The position numbers were made by a program, and so were the translations under genes. This document shows, in pieces, positions 600-4,586 of a stretch of 64,000 nucleotides of DNA; the stretch's first letter is position 1, and each line of letters starts with the position of its first letter. The DNA is from a virus. Below the pieces are notes generated by a model. It worked only from the letters and a program-made list of their open reading frames with translations, was not told the origin of the DNA and ran no database searches. The stretch spans positions 1-64,000 of IMG/VR virus record IMGVR_UViG_3300037470_000672. One strand, given 5' to 3'.

Positions 600-674
600 T
601 GGTACTGGTGGCAGGATTTGAACCTACGTACGCCCCTTTATGAGAGAGGTGCTAAGCCGCTCAGCTACACCAGC
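600..674 (-). tRNA. tRNA with CAT anticodon (elongator Met or Ile2)
   Basis: Cloverleaf; anticodon arm CCTCT-CTCATAA-AGGGG; T loop TTCAAAT; encoded CCA. Confidence 0.9.
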
Positions 675-677
675 ATG

Positions 678-753
678 TGGTGCCCCGGGCAGGTCTCGAC
701 CCTGCAACCTCCGGCTCTTCAAACCAGCGCTCTTCCACCTGAGCTACCGGGGC
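678..753 (-). tRNA. tRNA-Phe(GAA)
   Basis: Acceptor GCCCCGG/CCGGGGC; loop TTGAAGA; encoded CCA. Confidence 0.92.
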
Positions 754-754
754 A

Positions 755-831
755 TGGAGGACCCGCCGGGACTCTCACCCGGTTGATCCCGATTTGCAGT
801 CGGGAGCCTCGACACCTTCGACCTCGGGTCC
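755..831 (-). tRNA. tRNA-Cys(GCA)
   Basis: Acceptor GGACCCG/CGGGTCC; arm CCCGA-CTGCAAA-TCGGG; U73 then CCA. Confidence 0.88.
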
Positions 832-873
832 TGGCAGCCCCACCAGGCCATGATCCTGGAACCTCCGCCTTCA

Positions 874-909
874 GTCTCGGAATTTCAAGGATCCGAGCAT
901 CCTTTCTTC
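874..909 (-). CRISPR. Solitary CRISPR repeat inside the tRNA operon
   Basis: GTCTCGGAATTTCAAGGATCCGAGCATCCTTTCTTC; first 33 nt match the cas12-adjacent repeat. Confidence 0.9.
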
Positions 910-913
910 TAGT

Positions 914-929
914 CCGCCCGTACGGGCGG
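914..929. repeat. Dispersed palindrome CCGCCCGTACGGGCGG, copy 1
   Basis: Perfect 16-bp palindrome, 4 nt from the solitary repeat. Confidence 0.95.
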
Positions 930-994
930 GTTCAACGAGCACCTGAAGTCGTTGTTGTCGACGCTAGCTATCACCTCCGTTTGCGAAAGATTGC

Positions 995-1082
995 TGGTGT
1001 AGCGGGAGGGACTCGAACCCCCAACCACGAAGGGCCTGCCGGGTTACAGCCGGTGACGTCTGCCAATCGACGCTTCCGCTAC
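995..1082 (-). tRNA. tRNA-Tyr(GTA)
   Basis: Acceptor GTAGCGG/CCGCTAC; loop CTGTAAC; long variable arm; CCA. Confidence 0.92.
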
Positions 1083-1086
1083 ATGC

Positions 1087-1160
1087 TGGCGGCGGGAGAG
1101 GGAGTCGAACCCTCACGCCCGGAACCAAAACCCGGGGTCCTACCGTTAGACGATCCCGCT
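1087..1160 (-). tRNA. tRNA-Gln(TTG)
   Basis: Loop TTTTGGT in a CCGG/CCGG stem; T loop TTCGACT; CCA. Confidence 0.9.
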
Positions 1161-1178
1161 ACATCACGCCGGGGTCAT

Positions 1179-1256
1179 TGGCAGGGGAAGCTGGGAGTCG
1201 AACCCGGAACCTACGGGTTTGGAGGCCGTCGCTCTAGCCAGTTGAGCTACTCCCCT
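1179..1256 (-). tRNA. tRNA-Trp(CCA)
   Basis: Acceptor begins AGGGGAG; loop CTCCAAA; G73 then CCA. Confidence 0.92.
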
Positions 1257-1367
1257 TCAGCCCTGCGGATGTCGCGTTTGGCTGAAGGGGCGTCAGTAGT
1301 GCTGAAACTCCTGACACATGCTCGCCGAGGAACGGATCGGGCGCACGCGAGGCGGATGCATTCCTGA

Positions 1368-1940
1368 TCATGCGGCGAGGCGCACCTCCGGTCGCTTGGT
1401 CGCCGCGTAGTGTTTCCACGCGGCCGGCCATCGCTCGGAAAGCACGAGACCGCGAGTTGCGAGGACGCCACGGAGCCCAGGAGGCTCCCAGGATTGGCCG
1501 GGGAGCTTGACGCGTGTCTGCATCTGCCAGCAGGTGCTCTCGGTGGCGCCGCTGCCGATTGGCAGGTTCGCGGCATACGAGGATGCGTAGCGCATCTTGT
1601 TGCGTCGTCGACGGATGTAGCTGATGGCAGCGGCGACGGCACTGCGCGCCCTGTCGTCGCTGCGTGCGATCTTCTTCGCCATCCGCCTCAGCTTCCGCAG
1701 GATGTTGTCGATGCCGTTGTCCTCCTTCAGCAGCGTCACGCGGTACCAGCCTTTCCAGTCCTGGGGGTCGCCCGGTGGCTCGCAGGCATCGACCACGTCT
1801 TCGAGGTAGCCGACGAGATGCTCGAAGTCGACGAACTCGCACACCTTCATCTCGCTTGGCAGCACGCGGCGAAGGGCTGCCGGCAGCGCCGACAGCTCCG
1901 GCGCCGCGTCTTGAATGCAGTGCAGCGGGATGCTGGTCAT
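1368..1940 (-). pseudogene. C-terminal fragment of an ISKra4/UPF0236-like DDE transposase
   Basis: Motifs VDFEHLVGYL, YIRRRRNKMRY and LPIGSGATES; the N-terminal half is missing. Confidence 0.75.
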
Positions 1941-2014
1941 GGTGCTCTCGTTGGGATAGGGGTCTGTGGTTCTTCGGATGAGGGTACACACAGGTTGTGT
2001 GGGGGTCAACAGAT

Positions 2015-2696
2015 CTACCGAAGCCAGTCAAGATCTCCCCGCAGGTACTCCTTGAGCCGATGCTTCTTCCCCGTACGCTCGCAGGTCACTACCCCGTCCT
2101 GTGTGCGCACAGTTCTGCACTTGTCACCTCGTTGGCCCGTTCCAACCTGAGTCTTGCGCGTGATTCCACGAGCCTGCGCTGCTTCCTGCTGAGCCCGCTG
2201 CTGGAGCTTCGCCGCGAGTGCGGCCAAGGCGTAAGCGCGGTTCTGGTGTTGGCTACGTTCGCTCTCTGAGCGCGTGACGATGCCGGTGGGGAGGTGAGTA
2301 GCCCGCACCGCGGAGTCGGTCTTGTTACGGTGCTGTCCGCCCGCACCGGTCGATCGGTACGTGTCGATCTGGATGTCCCGCATGTTGAGCTGGACTTCCG
2401 GCTTCTCCGGCTCTGGCAGGACGGCGACGGTCACGGTTGAGGTGTGAACCCGGCCGCGTTTTTCGGTGGGAGGGATCCTTTGCCACCTATGGCCGCCTGG
2501 TTCGGTTTCGGCGAGCTGGCGAGCGCCTTTGCCCACAATGCGGAGGGCCACGAAACCCGGGTGCTGTTCTAGGAGAGCGACCTCAAAGCCCCCTCCGCCC
2601 CGCGTAGCGAAGGTAGATGTCCATCTGGTCCTCGACGAGGAGTTTGGCATCATCGCCGCCTTCTGCGGCACGGATTTCTAGGATCACGGCTTCCAT
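2015..2696 (-). CDS. Class I peptide chain release factor homologue (RF1-type PxT motif, GGQ), about 226 aa, needing a +1 frameshift at 2583-2588
   Basis: Frame 1: SD AGGAGG then MEAVILEIRAAEGGDDAKL...YAGRRGL-stop. The +1 frame continues EVALLEQ...HRWQRIPPTEKRGRVHTS...GAGGQHRNKTDSAVR. Confidence 0.9.
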
Positions 2697-2727
2697 GATC
2701 GGCCTCCTGTTGATCAGCATAGCAAGC

Positions 2728-2803
2728 TGGTGCGCCGAGCAGGACTCAAACCTGCGGCCTCTCGTTCCGGAGACGAGCGCTCTGTTCGCTGAGTTACCGG
2801 CGC
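2728..2803 (-). tRNA. tRNA-Arg(CCG)
   Basis: Arm CTCGT-CTCCGGA-ACGAG; acceptor GCGCCGG/TCGGCGC; CCA. Confidence 0.9.
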
Positions 2804-2856
2804 ACGGTGCGCGTTCGCGCGTGCTCAGCGGCGATGGTGTCGTCTTCCATTCCTTA

Positions 2857-3297
2857 CTACTTGTGATCTTTACGACACACACGCTTGGTTTTATTTCTCG
2901 CTCTCCATGCCCTGCGGTACACCCTACTATGTTCGTTCCACGCATTCTTGCAAGGCTCGCATCTACACTTGTGATGCGAGTACCTAGTAAGGGTACCATG
3001 GACAGAGGTCGGACCTGGGTGCGACTTTCTAAGGTTATCCGCTGGTGACAGTATTTGCAGATTTTCTATGTCGTCATTGGTGAAATCGCCGTCGATGTGG
3101 TCTACGTGCTCTTCCTGTCCAAGAAGTCGTCCAAGGTGGACTGACATAAGGTACCTTGCCAAGCTCATAGACCCTCGGTGAGAGTAATCTTTCTTTACGA
3201 GGTGAACGTACCTCCTTTCATTCTTATGGACTGTAGGGCCGTAGACTGTATAACCTTCAAAAGGTGGAGGGGCTGATCTCCCTTTTCTCTCTACCAT
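2857..3297 (-). CDS. HNH endonuclease with C-terminal HGT-x-Y-x-CRC-xx-C motif
   Basis: HVDHIDGDFTNDDIENLQIL HNH motif; HGTLTRYSHHKCRCEPC. Confidence 0.85.
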   Translation of the reverse strand: MVERKGRSAPPPFEGYTVYGPTVHKNERRYVHLVKKDYSHRGSMSLARYLMSVHLGRLLGQEEHVDHIDGDFTNDDIENLQILSPADNLRKSHPGPTSVHGTLTRYSHHKCRCEPCKNAWNEHSRVYRRAWRARNKTKRVCRKDHK

Positions 3298-3342
3298 CTA
3301 AAATCCCATTTAAGATGTCCAAGAGTTTACTCTCACGTTCGG

Positions 3343-3419
3343 TGGGGCCGGTGAAGGTGCTCGAAACCCCATCATGTCCGCTTACAAGGCGGATCGTCTG
3401 CCTCTTGACGTACACCGGC
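3343..3419 (-). tRNA. tRNA-Thr(TGT)
   Basis: Arm TCCGC-CTTGTAA-GCGGA; acceptor GCCGGTG/CACCGGC; CCA. Confidence 0.85.
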
Positions 3420-3439
3420 GCGTTGTCCTCTCTTCCTTC

Positions 3440-3515
3440 TGGATCCTACGACCAGGATCGAACCGGCGACCTCCGCGATACCAGCACGGTGCTCTGCCAT
3501 CTGAGCTACGCAGGC
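3440..3515 (-). tRNA. tRNA-Thr(GGT)
   Basis: Loop CTGGTAT; D arm GCTC/GAGC; T loop TTCGATC; U73 then CCA. Confidence 0.88.
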
Positions 3516-4093
3516 CCACTTGTAGAGACTCTAGACCTAGCCCTTTCCCGAAAGGCCCGCCCCCTTTCGGTATTACCAGCTCGACAAACATCACAGCGGC
3601 ACTTGTGATAGCCGTACATGCTTGCCGTTCCATGATCCGCCTTGCTACGAGGTTTAACCCCTTTCCGTATACGTAGGCTACGATTGTACTCTCGCATGGC
3701 CGATTTACAGGCATCGCAGCGACACTTTTTGTTTACGTACATTACGTACGTACCGTGATCAGAGAATCTTCTACCTAGGTCTTCGACCACGGTTTTCTCA
3801 TTGTGACAAGGACCGCAGAGCAACTGGCAGTTCTTCAGCTCTTCCATCCTTCGAGCATTGTTGACGTAAGCCATCCTGGGGACTTTCATCGTCTTCTTAG
3901 CCCGATCGATGTGGTCAATCTGAAGGTCTTTCTCACTACCACATCGGGCGCACTTTCCCCCCAAGTGGGTTATCATCTCCTTTCGTTTTTCGTGGTATCG
4001 TCTACGCATGTACTCGCGGTAGTAGGCGTTGTACTCCTCTTTGGTCCAGTCTTTGCGCGCCATGCCCCATGGTACGCTGTTAAGACAGGACAT
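3506..4093 (-). CDS. HNH endonuclease with two HGT...CRC-xx-C repeats
   Basis: CARCGSEKDLQIDHID...CQLLCGPCHNEKT (zinc-binding HNH); HGTYVMYVNKKCRCDAC and HGTASMYGYHKCRCDVC. Confidence 0.88.
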   Translation of the reverse strand: MSCLNSVPWGMARKDWTKEEYNAYYREYMRRRYHEKRKEMITHLGGKCARCGSEKDLQIDHIDRAKKTMKVPRMAYVNNARRMEELKNCQLLCGPCHNEKTVVEDLGRRFSDHGTYVMYVNKKCRCDACKSAMREYNRSLRIRKGVKPRSKADHGTASMYGYHKCRCDVCRAGNTERGRAFRERARSRVSTSGPA

Positions 4094-4158
4094 TCAACCG
4101 TTTGTGGTATGGATGCTGTTCCTGTCTAGCTTCGAGCCTTCTTTCCTTTTCAAGTATA

Positions 4159-4234
4159 TGGTGGACTCGATCGGGGTCGAACCGATGACCTTCACCTTGC
4201 AAGGGTGTTGCTCTCCCGACTGAGCTACGAGCCC
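4159..4234 (-). tRNA. tRNA-Ala(TGC)
   Basis: Loop CTTGCAA; acceptor GGGCTCG/CGAGTCC with G3:U70; CCA. Confidence 0.93.
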
Positions 4235-4235
4235 A

Positions 4236-4312
4236 TGGCGGACCAGATGGGAGTCGAACCCACTTCAACCTGTTCGACAAACAGGCGCCTCCTCCGCTTC
4301 GGCTTCTGGTCC
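4236..4312 (-). tRNA. tRNA-Asp(GTC)
   Basis: Arm CCTGT-TTGTCGA-ACAGG; G73 then CCA. Confidence 0.9.
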
Positions 4313-4509
4313 TCGACGTTGTCCCTTCATGCGCCGAACCCCCTCCCCGTCTTCTCGACGGCCAGAGGGGGTTCGATGAACCTGGACGTCGAGATCTGAG
4401 CTAGGTGCGGCTGTCTTCCACGCGCGTATTCCCGCGGGTGAAGATCATGGAGATGGCGGTGCGCTTCGCTTCTGTGAGCACTCGCTCGCTCTCTGTCGAG
4501 GCTTTTCTG

Positions 4510-4586
4510 TGGTCGGGGCGGCGGGATTCGAACCCGCGACTTCCGGTACCCAAAACCGGCGCGCTACCAGCCTGCGCCACACCCCG
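4510..4586 (-). tRNA. tRNA-Pro(TGG)
   Basis: Acceptor begins CGGGGTG; arm CCGGT-TTTGGGT-ACCGG; CCA. Confidence 0.93.

Follow-up and report, generated by a model that had tools for sequence, protein, structure and literature searches.

A short RF1-type release factor gene of phages and myxobacteria is interrupted at a conserved, putative prfB-type +1 frameshift site

The +1 frameshift at CUU-UGA in prfB, the gene of RF2, is a textbook case of translational autoregulation, and in bacteria this switch is known only from prfB. A gene of a large uncultured phage, laid out in the same way but coding for an RF1-type protein, therefore raises two questions: whether its interruption is a genuine control element and, if so, which activity of the cell such a gate would sense. 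The DNA analysed (the window, 64,000 nucleotides) corresponds to positions 1 to 64,000 of the IMG/VR record IMGVR_UViG_3300037470_000672, a metagenomic assembly, and the gene lies at positions 2015-2696 on the minus strand. We consider it likely that it encodes a 226-aa RF1-type factor without domain 1, which would be produced whole only through a putative prfB-type +1 frameshift.

The coordinates of the gene and of its surroundings are given in Table 1. Read from its ATG, the gene opens with a short frame that ends in ...CGG AGG GGG CTT TGA G (GGAGG-GGG-CTT-TGA-G, 2596-2582). On rereading of the sequence, every coordinate that an earlier note on this DNA had given was correct, and the site has the prfB-style architecture proposed there, with a Shine-Dalgarno (SD)-like element, a 3-nt spacer, CUU and UGA. 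In the alignments, the frame-0 segment matches the N-terminus of uninterrupted homologues and E. coli RF1 from residue 112 onwards, and the whole gene, read with a single four-base step at CTTT, gives the protein P0001.

Table 1. Positions of the short release factor gene and its surrounding features in the window, and of three relatives in their own loci.
Feature	Position	Strand	Remarks
tRNA-Arg (CCG)	2728..2803	-	directly upstream of the release factor gene; ARAGORN; Rfam tRNA 53.6 bits
Initiation Shine-Dalgarno AGGAGG	2703..2708	-	6 nt before the ATG; sequence reading
Frame-0 segment	2583..2696	-	ATG (2696-2694), 37 codons of release factor domain 2 (EIRAAEGG... helix), TGA
Internal SD-like GGAGG	2592..2596	-	spacer GGG (3 nt), 5' of the slippery codon; sequence reading
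Putative shift site	2583..2588	-	CTT (2588-2586) and TGA (2585-2583); next base G (2582)
+1-frame segment	2015..2584	-	GAG at 2584 to TAG 2017-2015; 189 codons and stop; rest of domain 2, domain 3 (GGQ), domain 4
PPT tripeptide	2465..2473	-	residues 75-77; RF1-type PxT motif; aligns with PAT of E. coli RF1
GGQ catalytic motif	2333..2341	-	residues 119-121; invariant columns G119, G120, Q121
Relatives with an in-frame stop	L003:3001-3681, L024:2983-3684, L070:4001-4666		

The position of the gene inside a tRNA array, also pointed out in the earlier note, is clear from the tRNA-Arg (CCG) gene upstream and further tRNA genes downstream (600-1257). The array comprises 11 tRNA genes (600-4586, minus strand, the same strand as the release factor gene) and is interleaved with two HNH endonuclease ORFs (2857-3297 and 3506-4093), and no promoter-like or terminator-like site was found on the minus strand between the tRNAs and the release factor gene. 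A separate start of the +1 ORF at GTG 2671 was discarded, because the first 37 frame-0 codons encode a conserved release factor helix and because no +1-frame start codon lies at ribosome-binding-site distance from the internal GGAGG. Searches for a stimulatory RNA structure downstream of the shift site (z +0.99) and for Rfam families at the site gave no match. At the very start of the contig (3-426, plus strand) there is a CRISPR-like array in which a 36-nt repeat, GTCTCGGAATTCC...TTTTCAAC, occurs six times at start-to-start distances of 73-78 nt, with spacers of about 37-42 nt; a search of 401 Myxococcota genomes for this repeat, aimed at assigning a host, gave no match.

The NCBIfam RF1 model (NF001859 / TIGR00019) matches the joined product P0001 in one stretch, from model position 105 to 333 of 347, with 240.8 bits, compared to 160.3 bits for RF2 and 114.1 bits for PrfH; all three scores fall below the equivalog cut-offs, which for RF1 is 400 bits, with domain 1 lying outside the match. 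The earlier note's reading of a +1 frame that runs on seamlessly into the PPT and GGQ motifs is thus borne out by a single profile match and a gap-free alignment, and the lack of domain 1 by the model position at which this match begins. About 105 residues are missing, and a tRNA gene abuts the gene start. P0001 also matches the Pfam domains PCRF (profile positions 101-194 of 194) and RF-1, and among the PHROGs only an unnamed family matches it. Against proteins of solved structure, it aligns with residues 112-340 of E. coli RF1 at 181 bits, with RF2 at 121 bits and with PrfH at 75 bits, and its identity to the RF1 of E. coli and T. thermophilus is 42-44%.

In RF1-ribosome structures, UAA and UAG are specified by a Gln that precedes the recognition loop, by the Pro and Thr of the PxT motif and by a His-Thr pair after it. 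The alignment of P0001 to RF1 keeps all of these residues, together with the Ser next to the His-Thr pair, and the GGQ motif is retained as well, in agreement with the RF1-type product named in the earlier note. The AlphaFold2 model of P0001 (built with 35 homologues; pLDDT 91, pTM 0.77) is confident across the frameshift junction, which forms a turn between the first helix (15-34) and a strand (38-45), and Foldseek superposes it on ribosome-bound RF1 with a TM-score of 0.93 (rmsd 1.8 Å), compared to 0.67 for PrfH. By sequence and predicted fold, the joined product is therefore an RF1-type class-I release factor without domain 1, and judging from its recognition residues it most likely terminates at UAA and UAG. 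Nevertheless, the loss of domain 1 and the unusual tripeptide of the family (PPT or PPN) make its true stop specificity less certain.

The missing domain 1 also brings to mind ribosome-rescue factors of the PrfH or ArfB kind, which lack this domain too, and a protein of that kind would not be a stop-codon release factor at all. The location among tRNA genes in phages and the weak PrfH match would suit such a role. However, the PrfH score (TIGR03072) stays under the cut-off of 166.65 bits, the elements of stop-codon recognition are the best conserved part of the short family, and the predicted fold is nearer to RF1. In addition, the phage gene is not adjacent to rtcB, and across 67 loci no conserved neighbour gene was found and Pfam scans of the neighbours did not retrieve RtcB. 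A rescue factor thus appears very unlikely, and we treat the protein as an RF1-type release factor in what follows.

To place the interruption in an evolutionary frame, relatives were gathered from a scan of IMG/VR (44 loci) and a scan of GTDB genomes (80 loci), and were parsed by tblastn and reading frame. The phage collection contained a single gated homologue, from the 485-kb uncultured huge phage LR745208.1 in GenBank, which is 48% identical and whose gate, after codon 37, reads ...CGG AGG GGT CTT TGA C. Altogether, 48 non-redundant genes from phages and Myxococcota chromosomes need a +1 shift at one common alignment column, with identities to P0001 of about 45-67% and a locus GC content between 39% and 76%. 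All 48 have CTT as the slip codon; the gate stop is TGA in 33, TAG in 15 and TAA in none. The earlier note had proposed asking whether homologues keep the CTT-TGA site, and the answer is that, among the gated relatives, the CTT is kept without exception and the TGA in part. In 40 of the 48 genes, a GGAGG element (one mismatch allowed) precedes CTT by 1-3 nt, and in 19 it is exact and at a distance of 3 nt. The base after the stop is C in 40 of the 48, whereas it is G in the phage gene studied here, which therefore falls outside this C context. CTT makes up 13% of the Leu codons in the phage genome and AGG 10% of the Arg codons; with CTT in every gated relative, the site goes beyond chance expectation.

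Could the interruption nevertheless come from a one-base mistake in sequencing or assembly, or mark a decaying pseudogene? The contig comes from a metagenomic assembly, where such an error might be suspected, but the same column, the CTT-stop and the SD-like context recur in 48 independent genes, among them the copies of Minicystis rosea (TGA) and Archangium gephyra (TAG), which lie on finished chromosomes, and frame 0 is strongly conserved over the first 37 codons. An artefact or a dying gene is consequently barely credible. The recurrence of one shift in such diverged genes points, as far as comparison can tell, to a true control device.

Homologues are thus not uniformly in frame at the junction, as the reading of a gate in the earlier note implied, although uninterrupted ones exist. 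The latter cross the junction without gaps, reading RRGL or RRSL onwards, and the four for which DNA is available have neither the SD-like codons nor a stop after the codon at the gate position. One of these four, L028 (2995-3678), reads CTT AGT, as a CTT TAG gate would after loss of one T, which suggests interconversion of open and gated forms through single-base indels. In three other relatives an in-frame stop takes the place of the frameshift: TAT TAG in L003, CTC TGA in L024 and CTG TGA in L070. The nearest uninterrupted relative of L003 (P0035) has a Trp at the position of the in-frame stop. Recoding of the stop and readthrough would both be conceivable in these phages.

The same pattern is visible at the protein level. 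Of the 113 closest short protein clusters in a large protein database, 35 show no interruption and 78 are gene calls truncated at the N-terminus; 55 of these 78 reach further upstream in the +1 frame and display there the signature GG.F followed by D/E (48), S (6) or N (1). The gate codons of these clusters were deduced from the +1-frame residues, with D/E standing for TGA, S for TAG and N for TAA. For genome annotation this means that about two thirds of the short release factor genes are called as N-terminally truncated ORFs.

How such a gate would work can be proposed from the layout of the site, and we infer on this basis both that frameshifting occurs and that it responds to RF2. After 37 codons, the P site of the ribosome would contain peptidyl-tRNA-Leu paired to CUU and the A site UGA, and the GGAGG located 3 nt upstream would pair with the anti-SD sequence of 16S rRNA. 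Where RF2 reads UGA slowly, the tRNA would re-pair on UUU and the ribosome would go on in the +1 frame, translating the PPT loop and GGQ; where RF2 arrives first, a peptide of 37 residues would be released. The output of the factor would then be inversely proportional to the efficiency of termination at the gate codon, which is UGA here, hence its expected dependence on RF2. As the base after this UGA is G rather than the weak-termination C of the family and of prfB, shifting may be less efficient in this phage. Moreover, because its determinants are of the RF1 type, the product should not read its own UGA gate, so that no direct feedback would be expected.

The phage itself uses the standard code, its genes ending in TGA (63%), TAG (26%) and TAA (11%). 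An alternative genetic code was considered and rejected, since table 11 gives a coding coverage of 92%, each of the three stops is in use and no suppressor tRNA was found by ARAGORN. An RF1-type product would serve the 37% of the phage's genes that end in UAA or UAG, and could relieve RF2 of UAA.

Whether the gate is tied to one particular release factor can be addressed from the distribution of the gate codons on the family tree. This tree was a quick IQ-TREE reconstruction (LG+G4, SH-aLRT support only) of 78 rows, rooted on six full-length RF1 proteins and leaving out partial genes and the duplicate L006. The short proteins form a single clade (SH-aLRT 96) separate from full-length RF1, and gated genes are found in its deepest branch (L030, L033 and L043) as well as throughout the clade. 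The TGA/TAG state of the gate changes at least eight times on the tree, and at least three of these changes are forced by well-supported branches; for example, the sister genes L053 (TAG) and L057 (TGA) pair with an SH-aLRT of 99. The recognition tripeptide is PPT or PPN across the family, its second residue being almost always Pro and PPN accounting for about 40%, and the PPT:PPN ratio is alike in TGA-gated, TAG-gated and open genes, the two forms being about equally frequent in each, so that within the short family no co-variation of the gate codon with the tripeptide was found. In PPN, the Thr with which RF1 contacts the stop codon is replaced, and this may alter the specificity of the members that carry it.

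Phage and myxobacterial genes are intermixed on the tree. L047, from a Myxococcota metagenome-assembled genome (MAG; 15-kb contig), is the nearest relative of the phage gene, with 67% identity and a near-identical gate. Besides the two finished chromosomes, the bacterial carriers include Pyxidicoccus fallax and A. lansingense, both with TAG, and in each of five myxobacterial genomes a single short copy accompanies the full-length RF1 and RF2. In both Archangium gephyra and Minicystis rosea, prfB contains the canonical site ...GGG GGC ATC TTT GAC... (L127:520-660 and L128:500-660, respectively), and both genomes therefore have two release factor genes with the same type of gate. The neighbours of the short gene in myxobacteria are unrelated to one another, and the phage copies are often located in or beside tRNA arrays. 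On a contig binned as a Kofleriaceae MAG (L050:124-3987), 16 tRNA genes lie directly upstream of a gated short release factor gene; this run resembles the phage arrays, and the contig may thus belong to a phage or prophage.

These distributions bear directly on the proposal of the earlier note that the gate is a cross-factor sensor, by which an RF1-like protein would be made only when RF2 is limiting. The prfB-type site and its UGA gate agree with this proposal and keep it plausible from the sequence, but the swaps between TGA and TAG, the lack of co-variation with the tripeptide, the in-frame stops and the existence of carriers that are not phages weaken it, and it is not the only reading that the family data allow. 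Indeed, free swapping of TGA and TAG among close relatives counts against a design tied strictly to RF2.

The gate could instead work as an unspecific throttle, or sense termination capacity as a whole; any stop read by a single factor would then be slow enough, and UGA would be incidental, mainly setting a low or late level of the product. The frequent swaps favour this looser reading over a purposeful RF2 sensor: TGA and TAG gates are interspersed on the tree, down to the sisters L053 and L057, and the tripeptides are indifferent to them. The in-frame stops of L003, L024 and L070 at the gate position are in line with such a throttle too. However, TGA dominates among the nearest relatives of the phage gene (48:6:1), the full prfB-like context, which makes prfB output responsive to RF2, has been kept, and a weak ribosome binding site would be a simpler way to build a pure attenuator. 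None of the 48 genes has a gate at TAA, the stop shared by both factors, and the database calls yielded a single deduced case; this near-absence fits both an RF2 sensor and a throttle. We regard a throttle of this kind as a possible, though rather doubtful, explanation.

A further alternative is that the product reads its own gate, as in the autoregulation of prfB. This would require a specificity widened to include UGA, of which the unusual tripeptide, with its nearly invariant second Pro and its frequent PPN form, might be a sign, and a like protein is indeed encoded behind both UGA and UAG gates. The UAG-gated relatives with RF1-type determinants would fit such autoregulation, whereas a UGA gate is predicted not to be read by the product. 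Moreover, the residues of RF1 specificity (Gln, the Pro and Thr of PxT, and His-Thr) are aligned unchanged and the RF1 profile score is far above that of RF2, which leaves self-reading improbable for the phage gene.

We tentatively put forward a second, independently evolved recoding circuit of termination, in which an accessory RF1 without domain 1 would be gated by a +1 frameshift to the activity of RF2 (at UGA) or of RF1 (at UAG), as a reading that is quite possible, if short of an even chance. If it is true, phages and myxobacteria could rebalance their termination capacity on demand, and the form gated by UGA would represent the first cross-factor sensor based on frameshifting. The family also offers a natural experiment on what a gate of this type senses and on how such sites arise by convergence, and it bears on the need for an additional release factor, devoid of domain 1, in myxobacteria and in phages that have tRNA arrays.

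Conserved use of a prfB-type +1 frameshift in a short RF1-type factor is apparently undescribed. According to a 2025 survey covering more than 12,000 genomes, prfA has no programmed frameshift and TAG never occurs among 8,164 prfB motifs (PMC12421855); the GeneTack survey names only prfB (PMC3711429). The papers on huge phages (Al-Shayeb 2020, PMC7162821) and on recoded phages (Borges 2021 preprint, 10.1101/2021.08.26.457843) describe phage RF1 and RF2 and mention neither a frameshift nor a form without domain 1. In the literature searched, which covered few subscription journals, we found no published description of a frameshift-gated short RF1. The gene described here resembles the release factors of huge and recoded phages in being a phage-borne class-I factor, often accompanied by tRNAs and other translation genes, and differs from those of recoded phages in that its phage uses the standard code without a suppressor tRNA.

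With full-length RF1 (prfA), the short family shares the PCRF and RF-1 domains, a PxT-type loop, the GGQ motif and the same fold for domains 2-4; it differs by the loss of domain 1, by forming its own clade and by its PPT/PPN tripeptide. PrfH (RF-H) is likewise a short homologue of class-I release factors without domain 1, present in addition to RF1 and RF2. In contrast, PrfH is devoid of stop-codon recognition motifs and is linked to rtcB (RtcB2), while the short RF1 family keeps these motifs and has no conserved partner.

The closest parallel at the level of the gate is prfB itself, with which the phage gene shares an SD-like element separated from CUU by 3 nt, a UGA in frame that would occupy the A site, a +1 frame that encodes the rest of a class-I release factor, and the absence of a downstream RNA structure. 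The differences are equally clear: the phage gene is of the RF1 and not of the RF2 type, the base following its UGA is G instead of the C found in prfB, and about a third of the short RF1 family has a UAG gate. A UGA-gated short RF1 should, in addition, not read its own gate, leaving no obvious self-feedback of the kind known from prfB. Finally, the prfB site is at codons 25-26, in domain 1, whereas that of the phage gene is at codon 37, in domain 2 and near residue 144 of E. coli RF1, a displacement already recognised in the earlier note; this position indicates that the shift site of the short family originated independently of the prfB site.
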